A stretch of DNA of 64,000 bases from Octopus sinensis. Its lineage: Eukaryota. The position numbers and the translations under genes are program-made. Position 1 is the stretch's first letter. Every line of letters starts with the position of its first letter. The notes below the pieces were generated by a model. It made no database searches and was not told the origin of the DNA. It saw only the letters and a list, made by a program, of their open reading frames with translations. The stretch is taken from positions 2,728,001 through 2,792,000 of the forward strand of contig NC_043017.1 of the NCBI RefSeq assembly GCF_006345805.1, given 5' to 3'. Positions 4,034-60,031 of this stretch are shown here, piece by piece.

Positions 4034-4376
4034 GCATTATAACATTTAACAGATCAACACTAAAAGAGTTAATTATAATCCTCCAACAAAATTTTATGCT
4101 AATTTGTTCCGGACCCCAGCTTAATAACGAAGAAGTTATTTTACTAAATACTTTATTAATTTTAGGTCCAGCTGACCTAAATTCAAAAATGTTCCAGTCC
4201 TGGCCATCACCGGCATTGGCATCATTGTTTAACACCTGTTTTCCATGCTGGCATGGGTTAGATGGCTTGGCAGGAACTGACAAGTTTAGAGACTGTGCCA
4301 TACTCTTCTGTCTACTTTGACATTTCTTCTCCAGCTGGATGCCCTCCCTAATATGTCAATCACTTTACAGAACTAT

Positions 4377-4660
4377 TGTTGTTTGTTCCTTCTCAAGGGA
4401 CAGTTTTCCGGTTTCCTTGGCGTATAGGTTCCCCACCTGGACAGAACGCCAGTCCATCGCAGGTGAGCTGCAAGATGCAGGAGGAAAGAATGAGAAAAAG
4501 TTGTGGCAAAAGAGTCAGCGGAAGTTTCGCCATTACCTTCTGCCGGAGCTGCGTGGAGCTTAGGTGTTTCGCTCATAAACACACATTTCCCGGTCTAAGA
4601 TTCAAACCCGCAATCCGTCGACTGCGAGTCCGCTGCTCTAACCACTAGGCCATGTGCCTG
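4377..4660 (-). mobile_element. SINE family B inserted into a family E element
   Basis: Reverse complement of 1327-1616; imperfect TSD cactttacagaactat/cacttacagaagtat; E sequence continues on both sides. Confidence 0.9.
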
Positions 4661-5513
4661 CACTTACAGAAGTATACTGTGTGCTTTTTATGTGGCACCA
4701 GCATCAGTGAGGTCGCCAGATAATTTACAAGCCTAGACACCCTCACCTGTGTCAAAGAGTGGTACCAAGGAAGGTAGCTTTGTGTCAGGTGGGCAGTTAG
4801 AGCATGAAGAGATGAACAGAAAATAGAAGATTTGAATGAGATTTGGCTGCTATTTCTAGCAAATTAAACTGGGAGGGCGGCGCATAGTTTCTCCCATTGA
4901 TTCTTTGTTGTTGGATTTCTTGTTGTTGTTGCTTTTGTTTCTGCTTATTTAATTCGTTTTAAATTAAGTTGGTTAATTATTTCTGACATTGTGGTCTGAT
5001 TTAATTTATGTTTGCATACACATCATATACACCCAGTTGTATCTTTGTTATTGCATAGATTAAAAGGAATCTTTACAACCACATATATATATATATATAT
5101 ATACATACATATGCATGTATGTATACTCATTCACATACAAGCATACACATATATTGGAACTACTTTATATACATACATACATGGTGATTATTTTGTTTGT
5201 GTTTGAATTTACAAGTGTACACACACACACATATATATACACTCACATATATACACAGAGAGACACAACGAAAGTTCTCTCTTTCTCTCTCTCTTTACAA
5301 CTACATATGAACATATATACCTTTATATATACATATATACCTTTATATATATATATATACACACACGTATACGTACATTCATATACACTCACAGACACAC
5401 TCTCATCCTGTTTCTCACTCTTACAGATGGACTGGTTCTTTCTTTCTTTCTTTCTGTCTTTCTCTCACTTGCACTCACATACACATACATACACATACAC
5501 ACACACATACACA

Positions 5514-5545
<32 letters not shown>

Positions 5546-6469
5546 ATGTGCTGAAGCCAAAAAGCAAGAAGTTTTCAAACAATTATCAAAAACCTCTGTG
5601 AAATCTTAATACTAGAGGTAAGGCGTAGTATCTTTAATTAATTTTCACCTGATGATGAATGCTGGAAATAGAAGGGAGTGTACTGGGGAGGTGATGGCGG
5701 CGGCGGTGGTGGTGGTGGTGGTGGTGGTGGTATGAATATAAAGAAAGGTAGAAGATGTGTGTGTGTGTGTATAAAGACAACAGTGGAAAACCAACAAGGA
5801 AATGGTAAAAATTGGCAATCTGTTAATTAAAATTATTGGATAGATATAACATGGTGGCTGTGTAATAAATCTTACAGTGTCTCACTCCACCTCTCCATCC
5901 ACCTCTTTCACCCTTTACCTCTATCTCTATCTGTCTATCTCTCTCTCTCTATCTATCTATCTATTTCTCCTTTTACCTCCCTCTGTCTGCCTCTATCTCT
6001 CTCCCCCCTCTGTTTTTCTCTCCCTTTACATTTCTCTCCTTCTACCTCTCACCATCTTCTTTCACCCTTTACCTCTCTCTCTATCTCTCTCTACTGGCTA
6101 CTTGTTTATATGTGTTTGCGTCTGTGTGTGCGTGTGGATGTATATAAATAGATAGATACAGAGATGTGTGCATGTCTGTCTGTATATGTATTTATAACTT
6201 TCACCGTTTTACTGCTGTTGTGCATGAGTGAATGACTCCTCACATCTGTGCCATGTGATGTGGGGCCTATGGAAGAGTTTCCTGTTAACTTCATCACTAT
6301 GACTTAACGTCTGGTCCCCATACACACAGGGTGGGTAGGACAGTTTCACAGGAAACCAGCAAGTTACAGGGCCAGTCTCAAACTCCAGTATCGTCCTTGG
6401 CATGCTCTCTATGGCTGTTTGCCCTTCCTGACATCAACCACTTTACAGAGTGTAAAAAAGGTTAGGGTA

Positions 6470-6744
6470 GAGACCCCCTTCGATTACAAATGACCATGGG
6501 ATTGTTCTCTGAGGCACAAGTCCAGGCAAGGTTGTTTAAGTCTGGTCCTGGGTATAGGAGTGGCTGTGTGGTCCTAGGTGTTGGAATGGCTGTGTTGCTT
6601 ATGAACCATATGGTTCTGGGTTCAGTCCCACTGCATGACACCTTGGGCAAGTGTCTTCTACAATAGCCTCGGGCCGACAAAAGCCTTGTGAGTGGATTTG
6701 GTAGACAAAAACTGAAAAAACCTGTCGCATATATGTATATATAT

Positions 6745-6798
<54 letters not shown>

Positions 6799-7300
6799 GT
6801 GTGTGTGTTTGTTCCCCCCAACATCACTTGACAACTGATGCTGGTGTGTGTTTACATCCCCGTAACTTAGTGGTTCAGCAAAAGAGATCGATAGAATAAG
6901 TACCAGGCTTACAAAGAATAAGTCCTGGGGTTGATTTGCTCAACTAAAGGCGGTGCTCCAGCATGGCCGCAGTCAAATGACTGAAACAAGTAAAAGAGTG
7001 TCTTTTTTTTGTAATGGATCCTCTCACGGACGAGGGCACGTCCTGCCCTGTCCACTACTTTTCTCGCTTTATATGAATCCACTGGTTATTTATGGATGAT
7101 CAGCAGTCACCCATGCATACCGGCCTTCCCTCTCCACATCACCGATGTTATCCAAGGGAAAGGCAAAGGGGCCGATAAAGGTGGAGCAACATGGAATAAA
7201 GTGTCTTGCTCAAGAACACAACACGCAGCCCGGTCCGAGAATCGAACCCACTACCTCATGACTATGAGCCCTATATTCTAACCACTGAGCCATGCTCCTT
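6470..7300 (-). mobile_element. SINE family C split by nested insertions
   Basis: 3' part 6470-6538 and 5' part 7084-7300 match 26697-27032 in reverse; breakpoint duplication ggttgttta/ggttattta. Confidence 0.8.
6552..7000 (+). mobile_element. SINE family A, full length (nested)
   Basis: Complete head, microsatellite and tail aaggcggtgctccagcatggccgcagtcaaatgactgaaacaagtaaaag. Confidence 0.9.
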
Positions 7301-7959
7301 ACAAAGTGTGCTGGGTGCTTTATTCATGCCACCAACACCAGTGAGGTTGTTGTGTAACTTGTAAGACAGAAAAAGAGCAAAGAAACGGGACGTGGAAAAC
7401 GCTCCCACTGCCAAGACAAAAGTACCGGGAAATGGAAGGTAGAGGTCAGTGGCTTTATGCTAAAATCTGATTATGTCCTACTCTATTTACATTATTTACA
7501 TTTGACGGCTATTTGTCCTCACCTTGTTTGTTGTTGCTGCCTTCAAGAATTTTGGTCAATTATCTCGGCTCCAGTGTTTATTCTCATAAAGGTACTTCCT
7601 TTTCTTTTATTAATCTGTCTTTGTTGAACTGCTAAGTTACAAACATGAAGGGAAACTACGTAGCACCAACACATCCCGACTTGTATTCATATATTTTAAA
7701 ACGTTGTCAGTGACTACGAAGTCTCACTCTACACTAGTCTTGAGTCTGATTTCAATTAATGGTCACTATTTTCGTGCCCATAAAATCCTCCTTTTAGCTG
7801 AATAAATATTCGTGTGAGAGACTTCTGTACAGTTTCCAACTGCCAGATCCTTAGATATTTGTTCAACATGAGAAGAAGATGCTAAGATACTTGCTCAAGA
7901 TAATATTCAGTTGGATTAGAACCACCTAATTACAAACCAAACTTTTCATACAACCAGAT

Positions 7960-7997
<38 letters not shown>

Positions 7998-8436
7998 ATA
8001 TATATATATATGTGTATGCATGTGTCTGTGTGTGTGTGTGCGTGTGTATGCATGTGTCTGTATGTGTGTATGTATATATATATATATATATACTTGTATC
8101 CTTATATGCATATATATATATATATATGTATATATATCTATATGTATGTATATATGCATATATATATGTATATATATATGCATATATATGTATATATATA
8201 TACATATATATATGTATATATATACATATATATGTATATATATACATATATATGTATATATGCACATATATATATGTATATATGCACATATATATATGTA
8301 TATATGCACATATATATATGTATATATGCACATATATATGTATATATGCATATATATTTATGCATATATATGCATATATATCTATGCATATATATACATA
8401 TATATATATGCATAGATACACATTATATATATATAT
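7960..8436. repeat. (TA)n/(TATG)/(CATATA) compound microsatellite
   Basis: Directly visible; source of the YI-rich ORFs. Confidence 0.95.
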
Positions 8437-49907: not shown

Positions 49908-50007
49908 NNNNNNNNNNNNNNNNNNNNNNNNNNNNNNNNNNNNNNNNNNNNNNNNNNNNNNNNNNNNNNNNNNNNNNNNNNNNNNNNNNNNNNNNNNNNN
50001 NNNNNNN
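49908..50007. other. Assembly gap (100 N)
   Basis: Run of N; adjacency across it is not guaranteed. Confidence 1.
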
Positions 50008-50140
50008 TTACCTTCTGCCGGAGCCGCGTGGAGCTTAGGTGTTTCCCTCATAAACGCACACATCGACCGGTCTGAGATTCGAACCGGCAATCTCTTGACT
50101 GTGAGTCTGCTTTTCTAACCACTAGGCCATGTGCCTCCAC
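50008..50140 (-). mobile_element. SINE family B 5' part (cut by gap)
   Basis: ccttctgccggagccgcgtggagcttagg...ccactaggccatgtgcctcc. Confidence 0.88.
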
Positions 50141-50144
50141 CCCA

Positions 50145-50383
50145 TGAAATTTACAGATGTGAAAATGGTGAAGAAAAAGGAAAACGACGGAAGGGTTTAA
50201 AGGCATCCCTTCCGAAGAGTTCCAGCACTGCTTCGAACGATGAAAAATGCGTCTGATCCGATGCATTGCTTCAAATGGAAAATACTCTGAAGGCGGTAAA
50301 AGTGTAAACATGTAAAACTAATTGAATGAAATAATATTGCAAAACTCCGGTCTCTTTTGGGTACCTGGGTACCCCCTCTCTTA
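50145..50383 (+). mobile_element. mariner transposon 3' remnant
   Basis: KGIPSEEFQHCFER*KMRLIRCIASNGKYSEG resembles the mariner C-terminus (W..R...CI...G.YFE); TIR-like tccggtctcttttgggtaccccct end. Confidence 0.7.
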
Positions 50384-50752
50384 TAAATTATATGCATGTG
50401 TATATATGTAATGTATGTAAGTGTATGGATAGAAAGAGAGAGAGGGGGGAGAGAGAGAAAGAATGTGAAAGAAGGAATAGCAAAAGTACAAGTGGCATCT
50501 GTTGTTAATATGCAATAGATCCATTTACCCACTTCTGGAGTCCGTCCCACCAACACCGATGATTCAATGCATCGTATGTCTCTTTCCTGCTTTAACATCG
50601 AAACAGACCTCGTTTACAGACATATTTATCGTAAAATGTCATGTTGAGCAGAGAAGGGATTTTTGCAAGTCACAGGAAACAAAACAATTGTTCCACATAC
50701 AAATATATATATATAAATATATATGCATACATACATACATACCTACATACCT

Positions 50753-50786
<34 letters not shown>

Positions 50787-50987
50787 GTACGTATGTATGT
50801 ATATATGTTTAAAAATGTCGTGTATTAATACATTTAAATGCTACTTATTTTTGGCAATTAAATTTTAGATGTGTCATTTCCAAACGACAATAAAAATAGA
50901 GAACTTTTTTTTTATACCATGTCTATATTTTCGTGTAAAAAAAAAGAAGCAATTTTAAAGAACCAAATTAAACTCGAACTAGCAAAA

Positions 50988-51026
<39 letters not shown>

Positions 51027-51858
51027 AATAAATAATTAATAGTAAAATAAAATAAAATCTAAATAAAACCTAACTTTAAAGTTGGGTGTGACCGGACTGA
51101 GTGAGTCATGCATTTTGTGTTGATCAACAAAAATACTAAATATTTCGATATTATTGTTGTTGTTGCTTTTTCTGTTGTTGTATTTACGCCCGGTGTTGTT
51201 GTTGTTGTTCTTGTTGCTACTGCTACTGTCGTTGCTGTGAATTCAGTAAAGAATTTATAATCTTTTTTTTTCCCTTTCTTTGTTCGTTCTTATTTTTCAA
51301 ATTTTCCTATGATGAATTGCTCTGACATAAGGTTATGATGTAAAATGTTAGTGCAATTACGCAACTGGATCCTAATTTAAAAATTTTAATTGAATTTAGT
51401 TGTTGTTTCTATAATTAAATTAAATGAAATTTTACTTTTCACTTGATCAGTTGTTATGCTGTGGTTCCATGTTGCAATTTAAGTTAAAATGGCAGAAAGA
51501 CTTCTGCTGGATTTATTTTGAGGGATAAAATTTCTATGGAGAATATAGTCATGGGAAGTTAACCTCGGGCAAGGGTGACACAGGGATTTTTTATTGCAAA
51601 ACTCTCCTTTACTGGAACTTGTACATTATTGTCAAAGTTATTGCCGTTAGTTGTGTTGATATGTCGCTTGACAGCTGTTTCAGACCTTGAGTGCAACCTC
51701 AAAATATTTTTACCCTCTAATATCTCGAGAAGATAGTTTATCATTGATCATGCATTTTGCAGCTTCAAAATTTTGATGATGCGATGGTGTATGTTACAAT
51801 GGCATTGAAGGATAGGTGTCATAGGCTGGATCTGTCTGGTTAATACATAAACTACAGT

Positions 51859-51894
<36 letters not shown>

Positions 51895-51900
51895 TATATA

Positions 51901-52085
51901 TTCGCCATGATAGATCGGTAGCCATTACACACATTTTTTTCTCTCTTTGTTTCTTTCTGTGTTCCTTTATGTGGAAGAGCGTAGGCTCGAAACGTTTAAG
52001 ACTTTTTCAGTCACGAGCGTATACTAATAGATCTGTTTGTTTTCTACACCACCTGTCTTCGTCTTTGTTTTTTATCGTGAATTCT

Positions 52086-52090
<5 letters not shown>
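51901..52090 (+). mobile_element. Short element with variant hammerhead-like motif (51965-52000), between (TA)n tracts
   Basis: cttt-ATGTGGA-a-gagc gtag gctc-GAAAC-GTT-taag; homologous to 41240-41430. Confidence 0.55.
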
Positions 52091-52121
<31 letters not shown>

Positions 52122-52169
52122 CTATATATATATATATATATATATATGCTATATATAATATATAATATA

Positions 52170-52337
52170 TATGCGACGGGCTTCTTTCAGTTTCCGTCTA
52201 CCAAATCTACTCACAAGGCTTTGTTCAGCCCGAGGATATCGTAGACGACACTTTCCCAAGGTGCCACGCAGTGGGAATGAACCCGGAACCATGTGGTTAG
52301 TAAGCAAGCTACTTACCACACAGCCACTCCTGCGCCT
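52170..52337 (-). mobile_element. SINE family A 5' half
   Basis: cgacgggcttctttcagtttccgtc...cagccactcctgcgcct. Confidence 0.9.
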
Positions 52338-52483
52338 ATGTAGAATACACTGGATGATATAATCTTGGGAGGTTAATGTCACCATCATTCTATTTATGTT
52401 GTACAGCTTGTTACAGCAGAATATTGTATTTCAAAAAGAGTCGGACTAGATTCTTCCAGAACTTGGACAAATATGTGAAAATT

Positions 52484-52812
52484 ATCTTCTCAAGTCATAC
52501 CGACTCATAAGGGCTGGTTTCCCCTCTTTCCATGGCATATATAGACCTATTTGTGCGGGTTTCCCGGTTTCCATGGCATACATAGACTCACAAGGGCCGG
52601 TTTCCGTTTTCCATGGCCTTTAAATTCCCCAATTGGACGGGACGCCGATCCATCACAGGCTTACTCACTTTTGCCAGCTGGGTGGACTAGAGCAACGTAT
52701 GATAAAATGAAGTGTTTTGCTCAAGAACACAACGCGTCGTCCGGTCCAGGAATCGAAACCACGATCTTACGATGATGAGTCCAACACCCTAACCACCAAG
52801 CCATGCACTTCC
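52484..52812 (-). mobile_element. Chimeric SINE (C-like head, B-like tail with internal duplications)
   Basis: ttgctcaagaacacaacg head; ggacgggacgccgatccatc and three ggtttcc...tttccatggc tail units. Confidence 0.75.
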
Positions 52813-53787
52813 ATCTACTTGTTATTATTAATTTTGAATTAAAAGAAAGAACACACAAATGAAAAAAGAAAAAAATGAAGAAAATATCCCTTTCAGGTTT
52901 TCTTACTCTTGGACCATTCTATTGCCAAACAATCAGAGGAACTGCTTTGAGCTGTAATATCGAGATTCTTCCATCAAAGTATTCGACGCAAATGATTTTC
53001 TTTCGAAAAACTCATCAGTCTCGAACCAATAAAAGACATTTTAAAACATTCCTTTTTACTCAGCAAAAATGCCTGCCAGTCTGGTGTTGAAACAGCCGAA
53101 ACAGAAATATCCTGGTTAACTCAAGGTTTCTTTTAATCTTACAAAAGATTTGTCCTGAGCAATTTACGAATAATACACACATACATACGTGTGTACTCAT
53201 ATATGCCAATACACTATATAGATATTTGTGTGTGCGTGCTAGTGTGTGTGTGAGTGAGTGTGTTTGTAGGTATGTATATGTGTGTGTGAGGGTGCATGCC
53301 TGCGTGCACTTGAGCGACTGCCATCAAAAGAAAGGATAAATATTTACCACAAATCCGTTTATATATTCCGAGCAAATTTATCAGATTGATTCCATTTGCC
53401 ATAAATCTGCCGTAAACAGCGACCAAGCGTTCTTCAATTGCGTTTGACAAAGCTTCTGCAAGCATTTCCTCGCCTACACACGCACACACACACACATGCA
53501 GGCACATGCACACACACACATGCACATGCACACAAGTACGCACGCACAAATACGCGTATACAAACACGCACACACATAAACAGAGACACATACGCACACT
53601 CACACACAACTATACACACACACGCATAATCATTTTCTTATGTCGCACGCTTTCTCTCACTATATATATACACACAGATATATACATGTGTGTGTGTGTG
53701 TGTATAAATATACAATATATATATATATATACTGATAAATACATATGCGTGTGTGTGTGCGTGTGTCTATATCTGTGTATATACACA

Positions 53788-54728
53788 TACAGGGTGCGAT
53801 GGATAAATTGTCGCCATTTTATACTTTTATTTTCGCGCGCATACGCATTGTTTATTTTTTGATTTTGTCGACTACATAGTATAGTAGTGTCAGTTGGGTA
53901 CCGTCTGTGAGAAAGAAACAGCACCATGGTGCAATTTACTCTGCCAGAAATTTGGAAACGACATGCTGTACTGCTTCGCATTGATGTTGGAATCTCCAAT
54001 ACGAATGTTTCGGAGTATTTTGATGTCATTCTCAGGACAGCGCAAAGGAACCGGAAAGAGTTGGATGAGTCTAATGGTGATTACGAGGGTACGTACGGCA
54101 GCTCGGAAAATTAATTCTGATCGTTCTGATCAGAAAAGAACTCCTGAATTTGTTGGTGAGATCCAGGCCATGATTGACAACGATCCCTCCAAGTCAAACA
54201 GGTCCATCGCCAGGGACCTGCGAGTGTCTGAGTTACCTATCAGGCAATTAGTGCATGAAGACATTCGGTATTCCTCACAAAAGATGAAAAAGCGCCGATG
54301 TTTATCTCAATCCATCACAGACAAGAAATAAAACCAAGCTACGAAGCTTTTGAACAAACTTAAACATCCCCTGCAACCGAATATGTTTTGGTTTTCCTCA
54401 GTCGAGAAACTTTCACAGAACTACCTTTGGCTTGTCGTCTCCCCAAAATATGTTACAATAGTGATAAAAATCAAACATCCAGTCAACATCATGGTGCTTT
54501 GAGTGATCACTAGTGATGGTGACGTTATATCTCCTTTCATCTTCCCACACGGCTTCAGACTTAACACGGAGGCCTACATCATGTGGCCGTATGAGAAAGT
54601 GGTGCCCTGGGTCAAAAGAGTAGCTTCTGGAAGAACCTCTATCTGGCAAAAGGACTCTGCACCATGCCACACAAGCAGGAAAACCCAGTCACAGCTGTCA
54701 CACAATTTCTGCGACTACATCACCCCTA
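53788..54728 (+). mobile_element. Tc1/mariner DD37D (maT) transposon, 5' two-thirds, pseudogenised
   Basis: TA-cagggtgcgatggataaattgtcg TIR matching the inverted end at 22178-22206; ORF pieces MVQFTLPEIWKRH, RTPEFVGEIQAMIDNDPSKSNRSIARDL (HTH-like), ITSDGDVISPFIFPHG...QKDSAPCHTS; ends in (TA)n. Confidence 0.92.
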
Positions 54729-54753
54729 TATATATATATATATATAATATAAT

Positions 54754-54786
<33 letters not shown>

Positions 54787-55009
54787 CCAATATATATATA
54801 TAATGTGAAATAGAAAGATGAATAATCTTGTTGCAGATTAATCAAAAGTTTAACCGATACCTTGGTAGCAAAAATCACAGCAGAAGACAGCACGGTTGGA
54901 GGTACAACCATATGGTGTTGCAAACCGTGCGTTTGGTGCGGATAATTGAATTTTAAGATTATTAGTGATTGAAGAAATGGAGTTGAACGAAGATTGAACA
55001 GAAATCGTT

Positions 55010-55104
55010 TATTTCATTCTACTACACGTGTTTCGAAAGGCACAATTACCAAATTCCGATTGAATAATGAGACCATATTGTGTCTTTCTCTTCAGGAAGA
55101 AATA
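55010..55104 (-). ncRNA. Type I hammerhead ribozyme motif (GUA site)
   Basis: Minus strand: CTGAAGA(55095-55089)-gaaagacaca...tgtgcctttc-GAAA-CACGTG-GUA (55025-55023); stem I imperfect. Confidence 0.65.
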
Positions 55105-55141
55105 AGAAATCCGTTGGAAAAAACAAAAAAAACGGATTTCC

Positions 55142-55229
55142 TATTTCTTCTGAAGAGAAAGACACAATATGGTCTCATTATTCAATCATTTTGGTAATGT
55201 GCCTTTCGAAACACGTGTGAGATGAAATA
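55142..55229 (+). ncRNA. Type I hammerhead motif with GUG triplet (probably inactive)
   Basis: CTGAAGA 55150-55156, stem II 55157-55166/55198-55207, GAAA 55208-55211, CACGTG, GTG 55217-55219. Confidence 0.6.
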
Positions 55230-55339
55230 AAACGATTTCTGTTCAATCTTCGTTCAACTCCATTTCTTCAATTCACTAATAATATATATAATATATATAT
55301 ATTATATATATAATATATATATATATATGTATGTATATC

Positions 55340-55844
55340 GTCTCTTTGCAACAGCTCAGCTACTGGGAAAGGTTGAAACAGCTAAGATTCCCTGGAGAGA
55401 AGACGGGAGAGGAATGCAGTAATATATGTCTGGAAGATCCTGGAAGGAATTGTGCCAAATTTTGGCATTGTAAGCTACACCAATGCTAGAATGGGACGAC
55501 ACTGCATAGTGCCAAAGATCCCAGCAATGCCATCACGCTTCAGGACCAGCTACTGCAACAGCCTGGGTTTCAAGGGCCCACAGCTTTTTAATATTCTCCC
55601 AAAGAGTCTGAGGAACTTGCACAAAGTAGATGTAGCGGTTTTTAAATCAAAGTTGGACATCTTCCTGTCAAGAGTCCCAGATGAACCTATCCCATGGCAA
55701 GAGGTGCAAATGAGGGTAGCTGTATCAAACTCCATTCTTCACCAAGTGCCACATATTAGACGAGGTTCGTCGTAATAACAGTGTAGCACAAAACGGCGGT
55801 ACATCAGCATGGCCGCAGCTCTGAGCTGAAACTAGGAAAAAAAA
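55340..55844 (+). pseudogene. CR1-group LINE 3' end (ORF2 C-terminus + 3' UTR)
   Basis: QQLSYWERLKQL/SLERRRER.AVIYVWKILEGIVPNFG...GPQLFNILPKSLRN...FKSKLDIFLSRVPDEP is typical of CR1/L2-group ORF2 ends; A-rich tail. Confidence 0.88.
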
Positions 55845-55918
55845 TATATATAATTATATATAGATGTATATATGTATATATATATATATTATATATATAT
55901 AATCTATATATATATATG

Positions 55919-55977
<59 letters not shown>

Positions 55978-56264
55978 TTTATATTTATTCTATATATTTA
56001 CTTATAATATATACAGATATATATGTACACGTACATATATATATATACATGAAAATTGATCGATATATATATACATACACATACATAAAAGCATAATGCA
56101 TACATACAAAAACATACATGTATGTCTATGTATATATGTGTGTTTGCATGTTTGCGTGTGTGCGTGCGTGTTAGACAATTAGGTAGACAAGATCTGTTTT
56201 TATTTCCGTTACTTGTAGCTCTCCTTCCAGTTGTTGTTGTTGTTATTTTTGTTGCTGCTGTCGT

Positions 56265-56515
56265 TGTTCTTCTCCTTTTCGTTCTTTCTCTTTCTTCTTC
56301 TTCTTTTTTCTTTCTTCTTCTTTCTTCTTCTTCTTCTTCTTCTTCTTCTTCTTGTTTTTGTTCTTATTCTTCTTCTTCTTTTTCTTTCTTTCTTCACTTC
56401 TTCTTCTTCTTTCTTCTTCTTCTTGTCTTCTTCTTCTTCTTCTTCTTCTTTTCTTCTTATTCTGTCTTCTTCTTCTTCTTTCTTCTTCTTCTTCTTCTTC
56501 TTTCTTCTTCTTCAA
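56265..56515. repeat. (TTC)n tract
   Basis: Directly visible. Confidence 0.95.
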
Positions 56516-56716
56516 TTTAATGTTATTATTGTTGTTCGTTTCTCCCTTTCCATTTTTTTCCAATGTCTTGCAACAGAAATTTCATTTTTAAATTGCGCAG
56601 GTTGCTTCACAATTTAATTACATACTTTCACGGCAATTATCTCATGAATACCTATACATGAATACCTAATACTAAGTACATACATATATATATATATACG
56701 TTTCCATAGATGTAGG

Positions 56717-56764
<48 letters not shown>

Positions 56765-57078
56765 TATATATATATATTTATATACACACATGTATATATA
56801 TATGTATGTGCATACATATAATATATAATACATATATATACATAGATGTACATATCTATATATAGGTATATAAATGTATGTATATATATATGTATATATA
56901 TATATACATACAAATAAATATACATGCATTGAAATATATAAAATATTCACATAAACCCACATTGTATTATATATTTATTTACACACGCGCACGCACTCAC
57001 ATACATACACACATTATACATGCACATTTAGTTTATATTTATGTTCTAAATTGTTATATATATCTTACAAGCTATATA

Positions 57079-57130
<52 letters not shown>

Positions 57131-57469
57131 TCATATCTATATATGTATATATATCTATATATATATCTATATATATATATATTAATATATATATATATTA
57201 TATATATATAGCGTGTGCGAGTGTGTGTATGTATGTATATGTTATATATACAGGCCACACATCCATACCTATGGTTGCGTTGACAGTTAAATAGGGAATT
57301 TCGATTGAAATGCTACACACGAGAAAGATTCATCAGACGTTGAAATCTAACTTTACACTGAGACACGTATAGACACACACACACACACACATATATATAT
57401 GTATATATATATACAAATATATATATATATATATATACAGTGACTTTGCTGAGGTGGAGGTATGCAAAA

Positions 57470-57500
57470 TCCAACGTTTCGGACAGTGCTTCTTCAGGGA
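57470..57500 (-). ncRNA. Minimal hammerhead-like motif
   Basis: Minus strand tcc-CTGAAGA-agcactgtcc-GAAAC-GTT-gga; AACGTT palindrome; stem II weak. Confidence 0.5.
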
Positions 57501-57659
57501 AATATCGACAGGTGACTTCCATAATTTGGCATTAGAGGGTTTATATGTATATAGCATATAATAGCATACTCTATATATAAATATATATATAAATATATAA
57601 TTATATATATATATATATATATATTATATGCATGTATATATATAGTATATATACATATA

Positions 57660-57860
57660 TGTATGTATTTGTGTGTCTGTGTTATTCCCCCACTATCACT
57701 TGGCAACCTATGTTGGTGTATTTACGTCCCTGTAACCTAGCCAAAACAAAAAACCCGATGAAATAAGTACTAGGCTTACAGACGGTAAACCCTAGGGTCG
57801 ATTCGTTGGACTACAGGCGGTGCTCCAGTATGGCTGAAGCAAGTATAAGAAAAAAAGAAT
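57660..57860 (+). mobile_element. SINE family A 3' half
   Basis: tttacgtccctgtaacc...aataagtactaggcttaca...aggcggtgctccag. Confidence 0.8.
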
Positions 57861-58287
57861 ATAAATGATAACGTTTAAATGTTTGCTCACGCTTGACTAC
57901 TAAGTGTCGATGCTGCAGTTGTCCCTGGACGATTTCTTTCCAAATTCATTTATAGGTCTTTGCCATTCTTTTTCTCTCGCTTCCAACAAAAACCTGATAT
58001 ACTGCCGTATCTTAGTATGGTCTGGAACGACAGTTTAATTAGATAAATTACATCTATTTTTAATATATATTCCCGTTTGTAGCTTGCATTTCAGTTTAAT
58101 TATGCTATGGCCAAATCGATTAATTAATACAACACAGCCAGAGAGGTTTCTATAAGTCCACTTGGCACATCACTTTGTGTCCGAGAAAGACATCCACTGT
58201 TATTAATCTCGCTTTTAGCACTCAACACTTCCCACTCACACCTGCACTCACCCTAGCATTCTCACTCACACTCATACTTTCAACTCA

Positions 58288-59323
58288 TAGTGACGAGTGC
58301 GTTCTTAATCACATACGTAGATCGGTGGAAGGTTTGTAGTACGTCGTTATAGATTTGTTATAGAATGGGTTAATAACACCAGGTGGCGGAGGTGGTGGTC
58401 GTGGTGGTCGTGGAAGAATGAGGAATGATTTTGGGGTGGAGGTGGTGGTGGTATTGGAGTTGATGGTGTTGTTGGTGTTGGCGGTGGTGGTGGTATTGGT
58501 GGTGATAGTGGTTGCGGTAGTGGTGTTGATAATGGTGGCATTAATGGTGGTGGTGCTGGTGGTGATTGTGGTGGCGGAGGTTGTGGTGGTATTGGTGATG
58601 GTATTGGAGTTGATGGTGTTGGTGGTGGCGGTGTTGGTGGTGACAGTGGTGGCGGCGGCGGCGGCGGTGGTGGTGGTGATAGTGGTGGCGGAGGTAGTGG
58701 TGGTGGAATTAGGGTTATGTTGGGGTGGAGGTTGTGGTGGTATTGGTGATGGTATTGGAGTTGATGTGTTGGTGGTGGTGGTGGTATTCGTAGTGAATGT
58801 GGTTGCGGTAGTGGTAGTGGTAGTGGTGGTGGTGGTGGTGGTGGCGTTTAGAGTTTGTTGTTGTTGTTGCTGTTGCTGTTGGCAAGTGTAATGGGGGAGA
58901 TTAGAGAAAATCATGATGGGAAATAGTAAGGGTCCTAACTTTAAGTAGAAGAAAACAGGAATTGAGAAAGACGATGGTTACGGTGTTGTTGTTGTTGTTG
59001 TTCTTAATAGCGATTATGATGATGATGATGATAATGATGATTACAATAATGATAACGACGACGATAATGATGACGGTAGTAGTAGTAGTAGTACTAGCAG
59101 CAGCAGCAGTCGTAGTATCTGTAGCAGCAGTAGTAGTAGTAGTAGTAGTAGTAGTTGTTGTAGTAGTTGTAGCAGCAGCAGCAGTAGCAGCTGTAGTAGT
59201 AGTGTAGTAGTAGTAGTAGTAGTAGTAGTAGCAGCAGCAGCAGCGGTGATAGTAGTGGTAGTAATATCAGTAGCACCAGCAGCAATATTAATATCAGTGA
59301 TAAAAGTATTATTATTATTATTA

Positions 59324-59358
<35 letters not shown>

Positions 59359-59979
59359 GTTATTATTATTATAGTGTGAGGGAGGATTGCATACCATCAA
59401 AATGACACTAGGGTAAAATATACGAAGCCCAGTATACCCATCATGACTACCCGTCTGATAAGGGTACACTAGGCACTTGCATCACAACCATATATGCGAG
59501 ACATGGTGATCTCATATCAAGATAAACAGCACATGGCCTTGCAGGAGGGGTCCAGTTAGAATTCTTCTGGTCGAGTAACCCATCCCGCTCAAATGGTCCC
59601 TGAATAAGGGTTGTTTAAGGATGCTGAACAAAGCACCCATGTTTCCAAAGGTGCATTATCCAAACCCCAAAGAATCCCTCTCAACACACGGTCATGATGA
59701 TCCCCCACTACTTCTGCCCGTGATCAGAGATGCACATATCATCATCCACTAAGGGCCATGGTCAACAGGTTAAGGTCAAACAACTGACAAGCAAATCTGT
59801 GGTATTGATCAGAATATTTGCTGCAGCCCATCTTTTATACCAAGACAAAACAATGTACGTGATAACACTTCCTTAGATCAGAAGCTATGAGAGCCACTGC
59901 TTCAGGCAGTAATTATTATAACTAGTAGTAGTAGTAGTAGTAGTAGTAGTAGCAGCAGCAGCAGCAGCAGCAGTAGTAA

Positions 59980-60031
<52 letters not shown>

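Follow-up and report, generated by a model that had tools for sequence, protein, structure and literature searches.

A palindromic, 5'-truncated insertion of a Hydra-like Penelope-like element in Octopus sinensis, probably made by twin priming

The window analyzed here, a 64,000-nucleotide stretch of the 2.72-Gb Octopus sinensis genome (G000:C21:2728001-2792000), contains a palindrome built from two inverted arms at ~54958-55115 and 55131-55283. Local alignment of these arms gave 155 identities per 159 aligned columns, plus 10 gap columns, and overshoots the arm ends by a few bases into AT-rich flank, while the palindromic strand is predicted to fold into a single long hairpin (-220 kcal/mol). 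The palindrome noted in an earlier sequence-only reading, which gave its span as 54958..55283, is thus seen both in alignment and in predicted fold. The right end of that span stands, but the left end does not: the minus-strand arm goes on for ~155 bp, to ~54803, and the whole unit covers ~54803-55283, with (TA)n at both outer ends.

From left to right, the insertion is preceded by a (TA)n target microsatellite (54728..54802), recognized from the sequence itself and from the (TA)3 found at sister-locus ends. The long arm (54803..55129, minus strand) was delimited by alignment to a natural copy, L018, and is a 5'-truncated 3' region of a Penelope-like element (PLE) that runs to the long 3' end of the family, corresponding to positions ~7836-8163 of the ORF-bearing sister copy L032. 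Its outer part, a tail of ~155 bp (54803..54957, minus strand), represents the interval between the short and long 3' ends and, by sequence comparison, matches the 5' UTR of the tandem copy in L032, up to ~41 nt ahead of the ORF start. The short arm (55131..55283, plus strand; L032 positions 7850-~8007) is an inverted 5'-truncated copy ending at the short 3' end, and is followed by the right flank of the (TA)n microsatellite (55284..55330), identified by sequence. Between the arms lies the head-to-head junction (55116..55130). This had been taken for a 15-nt loop, but it is no spacer: 14 nt are element sequence of the minus arm, present in the long arm only, and the remaining position is an extra A in a homopolymer run.

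Each arm carries a type I hammerhead motif. The minus copy (55010..55104) includes CUGAAGA at 55095-55089, GAAA at 55034-55031, CACGUG at 55030-55025, and GUA at 55025-55023, and the plus copy (55142..55229) includes CUGAAGA at 55150-55156, GAAA at 55208-55211, CACGUG at 55212-55217, and GUG at 55217-55219; these parts, along with stem II, are present in the sequence as first described. The window copy itself has no ORF. Left of the insertion, a transposase-like fragment (53888-54727) was recognized by eye in translation and has no Pfam match; we take it to be Tc1/mariner-like. To the right, a reverse transcriptase (RT)-like 3' fragment at 55386-55775, likewise read by eye and without a Pfam match, is presumably the 3' part of a LINE-type RT. 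Pfam searches with 17 of the 100 window ORFs gave no match above cut-off, and no host gene was identified.

The insertion belongs to a high-copy family. A search with a single arm started from 708 initial candidates, of which 40 were scored, and gave 50 matches, most of them 90-96% identical, and an exact 34-mer matched the genome 667 times (reversed control, 0). The first 100 of these 667 matches represent 69 loci; a divergent pair is present at 31 of these, and a convergent pair at none. The proposed genome-wide search for copy number, orientation, and ORF linkage thus returned numerous copies, divergent pairs, and an RT/GIY-YIG ORF in sister copies, among which the window locus is an ordinary one: a single dead, truncated insertion among thousands. 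Family copies stop at either of two sites, a short end (CACTAAT.., L032 ~8007) or a long end (TTTCACA.., L032 ~8163) located ~155 nt beyond it, this interval being 175-190 nt in a divergent subfamily. In sister loci, (TA)3 comes directly after every one of 34 short ends and after 41 of 42 resolved long ends; the one long end without it continues into the ORF, and four further ends were left unassigned by the script. The 5' ends, by contrast with these fixed sites, are spread, indicating frequent 5' truncation.

Sister copies lead 5' into an ORF encoding an RT with a C-terminal GIY-YIG endonuclease (L032, L186), whose motifs align with those of full-length relatives. In L032 (G000:C4:13400500-13409600), the order is (TA)n, partial pseudo-LTR (pLTR), ORF, 3' region with hammerhead, and (TA)n. 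The ORF extends from ~4485 to 7195, in two pieces owing to a frame break near 5549-5585, the 3' region carrying the hammerhead is ~960 nt long, and a partial tandem, in which 4251-4444 repeats 7975-8168, forms the pseudo-LTR. Judged by these sequence features, namely the ORF, the pseudo-LTR tandem, 5' truncation, an inverted copy, and a one-sided tail, the parent is an EN+ Penelope-like element.

Within PLEs, the L032 protein resembles Hydra-clade proteins by eye. It contains SDKT, CNLC..E, and N...CPH, has a single C separating its GIY- and YIG-like motifs, and lacks CCHH. The family thereby displays the Hydra-clade marks of DKT in place of DKG, no CCHH, and CxxC and CxH flanking the endonuclease E and N; like that clade, it also inserts into (TA)n and has its hammerhead close to the 3' end. 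Its N-terminal motif reads RW-L in L032, against RWK or RWR in the 10 relatives shown. The CxCX5C linker before the endonuclease is absent from L032, L186, and the divergent subfamily (L241, L245, L246, L257), where a ~130-aa S/N-rich stretch stands in for it, whereas all 9 outside relatives that were aligned keep it, as does another family of the same genome. Since this linker is missing, we file the family as a Hydra-like variant rather than as a strict clade member. Pfam assigned no family to either L032 ORF piece or to three relatives, and a PDB search returned nothing significant. An assignment to Nematis was dropped upon comparison with the Hydra-clade description in the accessible text of PMC8557442. 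The second Hydra-type PLE family of this genome, with its CxCx5C linker retained, was found at L206-L235 (e.g., G000:C1:63325658-63326050) and offers a natural control for both targeting and tail length.

A pattern describing the hammerhead core matched the genome 5,873 times and its reversed control not once, so that the window motif cannot be attributed to chance. The two free bases at the center of stem III are CG, TG, or TA in 5,794 of the 5,873 matches (98.7%), all of which would self-pair in a dimer, while the non-pairing center CA, the mirror product of CpG decay, occurs in 36 of 5,873. This supports a dimer-type ribozyme with predicted cleavage, and agrees with the initial view of a type I hammerhead whose palindromic stem III suits dimers. 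The label "minimal" does not apply, as stem III here consists of 3 bp plus a 2-nt palindromic loop and the minimal form described in the available part of PMC4209133 has no helix III. Similarly, a long stem II is present as first read, but has 12 positions in the family, rather than 10, and an inner hairpin (51 nt vs. 10 in the Rfam model). In the proposed comparison with Rfam RF00163 (Hammerhead_1), the whole model was matched, with the 51-nt stem II insert, at 14.8 bits (E 0.79), far below the gathering threshold of 34, and the 117 matches (E<=10) from a scan of window positions 50000-60000 did not include a hammerhead. The best Rfam match within the palindrome, a microRNA hairpin model, was below threshold and is rejected as a generic hairpin.

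Conservation among genomic copies was evaluated on 15 sequences, comprising L032 and 14 of 25 cluster representatives; the 11 left out were two family-1 duplicates, five unrelated look-alikes, two 5'-truncated sequences, and two indel-bearing rows. In stem II, 7 of 12 pairs are changed on both sides, and the covariation score is 0.241, vs. 0.152 in shuffled alignments (0 of 500); this score is inflated by relatedness among the 15 sequences and falls to <=0.086 when the stem is slid. Invariance of stem I and of the core in this set is circular because the search pattern fixed both. However, 68 of 77 family-1 arms found via a non-core pattern retain the core and GUA-GAA, although these copies are young. 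Conservation and stem covariation, as anticipated for a genuine hammerhead, are therefore found for the core and for stem II, respectively. Cofolding of two natural copies predicted an 8-bp intermolecular stem III for each of L018 and L097, with L097 alone attaining the full hammerhead fold, and stem II is not formed in the minimum-energy folds of family-1 monomers and dimers. Several subfamilies, represented by L191:5898-5998 and its relatives, have a loop II inner hairpin, a C-UUCG-G-like stretch, and a conserved UUAUU; a tertiary or protein contact is a possible role for this hairpin and UUAUU. Hammerhead-like motifs with palindromic stem III centers were also seen at L022:1797-1902 (minus strand, A-CAATTG-T) and L038:6609-6714 (plus strand, A-CAGTTG-T), in sequence unrelated to the family.

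Both hammerheads of the window deviate from the family at the cut site. The GUA triplet of the minus arm, previously described as cleavable, is indeed present, but a private 3-nt duplication at ~55022-55020 lies between it and stem I. On the plus arm, GUG reflects a private inserted G, or lost A, relative to the family form GUA-GAA. Neither variant occurs in the other loci compared, against 200 occurrences of GUA-GAA, and neither window arm has a regular cut site as assembled. Private changes amount to 1 substitution and 7 indel bases on the plus arm and 1 and 6 on the minus arm, whereas 77 other arms average 0.77 private substitutions and 0.77 indel bases, 59 of them having no indel. The indels at the cut site are probably consensus or assembly errors; if real, they would probably impair both window ribozymes.

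Inverted pairs follow a near-strict rule. Among the 69 loci, 52 simple divergent pairs were scored, and all 52 combine a long with a short end; the remaining 17 loci are single or complex and fall outside the pair count, two of them (L101, L103) having been set aside by hand. Short hairpins, with both anchors within 120 nt, number 119 genome-wide, and 49 of the first 50, drawn from several subfamilies, are again long+short (47 called by script and two script long+long calls read as long+short, with L132-L142 largely script-called). As six hairpins overlap the first sample, these represent 96 distinct pairs, 95 of which are long+short. The exception, L121 (G000:C2:152329341-152329458), is a short+short hairpin with TA in its middle and similar flanks on both sides, and is likely an inverted duplication or an assembly product. 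In the divergent subfamily, four of five inverted partners stop at the short site, and the fifth, L244, stops near the long site.

The geometry of the junctions, refined for 42 of 43 pairs, varies between loci. Of 42 pairs, 19 have a short arm extending past the 5' limit of the long arm by >10 nt, 12 show the converse, and in 5 the arms do not overlap at all, a geometry which, as read from the aligned copies, favors classic twin priming. Microhomology of at least 2 nt is present at 19 of 25 insert-free junctions, vs. 15.5% by chance, and inserts are found at 17 of 42 junctions, several of them copied from nearby element sequence. The two 5' ends of a pair are no more than 15 nt apart in 13 of 42 cases, vs. 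4.0 in permutations; such correlated ends suit a shared template end, to which trimming to palindromic microhomologies could add. Equal cDNA lengths were rejected as the source of this correlation, fitting 2 of 42 pairs vs. 13 for equal positions. The predicted hammerhead cut is a candidate source of 5' ends: 16 of 100 hairpin arms, from 12 of 50 loci, terminate at -1..+2 relative to it (binomial p 0.001, with non-independent arms), but the self-complementary sites +9 and +16 also peak as arm ends (7 and 6 arms). In the other sample, 3 of 84 arms end at the cut and 65 of 84 run through the cut site, and arms reading through it would need a template left uncut or re-ligated. At L073 (G000:C1:123773481-123775134), both arms start at the hammerhead cut (L032 position 7943) and are separated by 558 unrelated bases.

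Several routes could produce a palindrome of this kind. Fold-back self-priming, in which a long-end cDNA would snap back, be copied up to the short site, and be resolved there by the endonuclease, leaves the identity of the element unchanged and differs from our preferred reading solely in the origin of the palindrome. It too would yield long+short pairs and correlated 5' ends, and it allows for a short arm wholly contained in the long arm, as in the window. It further draws on the literature, as the accessible text of PMC3846280 reads junction palindromes as self-priming, and that of PMC8557442 attributes the tail to endonuclease-mediated resolution. However, simple fold-back is excluded for the 19 pairs with a further-reaching short arm and the 5 without overlap, because copying a long cDNA cannot reach beyond it, and zero-loop palindromic junctions (L070, L100, L109, L124, L128, L141) leave no room for a hairpin loop. 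Overall, we consider this route unlikely. An assembly artefact, i.e., a long-read fold-back over one real copy, would fit the indel-rich window arms and their poor local consensus, and differences between the arms, earlier invoked against it, are a weak argument since they are dominated by indels and resemble consensus errors. A read fold-back would nevertheless duplicate tail and flank, whereas the second arm stops at the family short site and enters a different flank, as in the 95 long+short pairs. Because its long and short ends are typical of the family, the window palindrome is more likely real, and we find an artefact highly improbable. No strand-change joint was listed in four contig sets on L032:7200-8160, whose short contigs are uninformative either way.

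The remaining alternative concerns what the element is. The initial interpretation was of an ORF-less fold-back, Penelope-like or retrozyme-like, and a non-autonomous retrozyme-like or regulatory fold-back unit would have its own life cycle, with dsRNA masking switching the ribozyme. Short hairpins are common enough for such a unit, given the 119 genome-wide, and a read-through transcript is predicted to form a ~155-bp duplex; this would be a candidate ADAR substrate, and a transcript starting in the loop would escape the masking. Yet junction positions differ among loci, so each unit arose by its own truncation rather than by copying of a common master. The unit was not seen in tandem, whereas tandem repetition is part of the definition of non-LTR retrozymes in the available text of 10.64898/2026.07.22.740005, and both window cut sites are irregular as assembled. 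Of the initial interpretation, the Penelope-like origin and the inverted pLTR junction hold, based on the RT/GIY-YIG ORF of sister copies and the long+short inverted pairs. The ORF-less unit itself is instead the 3' end of an autonomous PLE family, with its ORF in L032 and L186, and an independent fold-back unit appears to us very doubtful.

We conclude that the locus is a single, recent 5'-truncated insertion of a high-copy, Hydra-like RT + GIY-YIG PLE into (TA)n, with its palindrome probably formed by twin target-primed reverse transcription. In the twin priming of L1 elements, two target nicks prime on the RNA, one at a 3' site and one at an internal site, and an inverted 5' segment results, joined via microhomology. 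Unlike in L1, both priming sites are fixed in the octopus family, and the cDNAs usually overlap, giving a palindrome. In the proposed sequence of events, the endonuclease would nick both strands of (TA)n, the element RNA would be primed at the long site from one nick and at the short site from the other, synthesis of each cDNA would end prematurely, and the 3' ends of the two cDNAs would be joined head-to-head via microhomology or short inserts, often locally templated. In active elements, the hammerhead is predicted to cut as a dimer through its self-pairing stem III. The two hammerheads of the palindrome would be passengers, since a motif located ~60 nt upstream of the short end will be included in both cDNAs, and they probably have no role of their own in the window copy. 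We regard twin priming as the probable source of the palindromes across the family as well, and priming on one RNA molecule or on two as about evenly matched.

A more specific, and tentative, possibility is that this lineage integrates by coupled twin priming, in which a dimeric RT-endonuclease would prime both nicked strands of (TA)n on one RNA, at two fixed sites 155-190 nt apart. The cDNAs would run toward a common template end, which in some cases would be the hammerhead cut, and the palindrome would be closed by end joining. If true, coupled twin priming would account at once for both the inverted copies and the one-sided tails of PLEs, and the linker zinc finger would be dispensable for (TA)n targeting. 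The single locus matters little, and the family is modestly informative: it is young, has thousands of copies, and carries a tail long enough to be scored unambiguously, which turns the question of mechanism into a count. As a family lacking the linker zinc finger yet found in (TA)n, it also bears on the proposal that this zinc finger directs (TA)n targeting.

Much of the arrangement described here has precedents. In the available text of PMC8557442, PLEs are described as having a tail of 30-40 bp at one end and, beside the 5' end, an inverted 5'-truncated copy. The supplement of that paper includes Penelope-13_HM, a Hydra-clade element with such a copy and a hammerhead listed for each strand, so the layout of the palindrome, hammerheads on both strands included, has been published before. 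The corresponding portions of PMC3846280 report head-to-head inversions with a 31-bp tail on one arm and palindromes at junctions, those of PMC4209133 report PLE hammerheads with a palindromic helix III that are weak in vitro and need dimers, and PMC8969392 describes PLE architecture likewise. As presented in PMC11167929, a PLE protein cleaves and extends both target strands in vitro, the RT starts at two internal sites bounding the tail, with the start site the same for both strands, a protein dimer is predicted, and ribozyme cleavage is unnecessary for insertion in vitro. In their accessible parts, both PMC8557442 and PMC11167929 state that the origin of PLE inverted copies and one-sided tails is open. 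Mostly open-access literature, surveyed by title and abstract, contained no one-long/one-short rule and no tail of this length. At the family level, the near-strict long+short end pairing, the 155-190 bp tail, and the geometry favoring twin priming thus appear to be new, as does the persistence of (TA)n targeting without a Hydra-type linker zinc finger.

Compared with individual systems, the family is like the Hydra-clade C-terminal EN+ PLEs, as characterized in the available text of PMC8557442, in its DKT, N-terminal RW, lack of CCHH, CxxC + CxH, (TA)n target, and type I hammerhead near the 3' end. It differs in having a ~130-aa S/N-rich stretch and RW-L where the Hydra clade has a CxCX5C linker and RWK, in its unit of ~3.7 kb vs. 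"generally <3 kb", and in a much longer stem II. Hydra-1_Obim, the only octopus Hydra family in that text, has a hammerhead and a protein start unlike those of our family when compared by eye. With the Adineta vaga Penelope in the accessible part of PMC3846280, it shares a head-to-head inverted 5'-truncated copy and a one-arm tail, and with this element and PLEs in general, junction palindromes and N-rich RT-EN inserts, but its tail of ~155 bp (175-190 in the divergent subfamily) contrasts with 31 bp in Adineta vaga and, likewise, with the 30-40 bp given in PMC8557442 and PMC11167929. Non-LTR retrozymes, as described in 10.64898/2026.07.22.740005, also have a type I hammerhead related to that of PLE pLTRs, but are tandem, protein-free units, whereas the window holds one inverted, truncated piece of an ORF-bearing family. 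PAc, the Poseidon element from Anolis presented in PMC11167929, similarly has two sites bounding the tail (internal RT start sites), an AT-rich target, and a hammerhead upstream of the start sites. It is a member of the Penelope/Poseidon clade, however, with tail and cut site inside the ORF start, where in the octopus family both precede the ATG, and the strict one-long/one-short pairing, for which the available text on PAc has no counterpart, is a feature of the octopus family.
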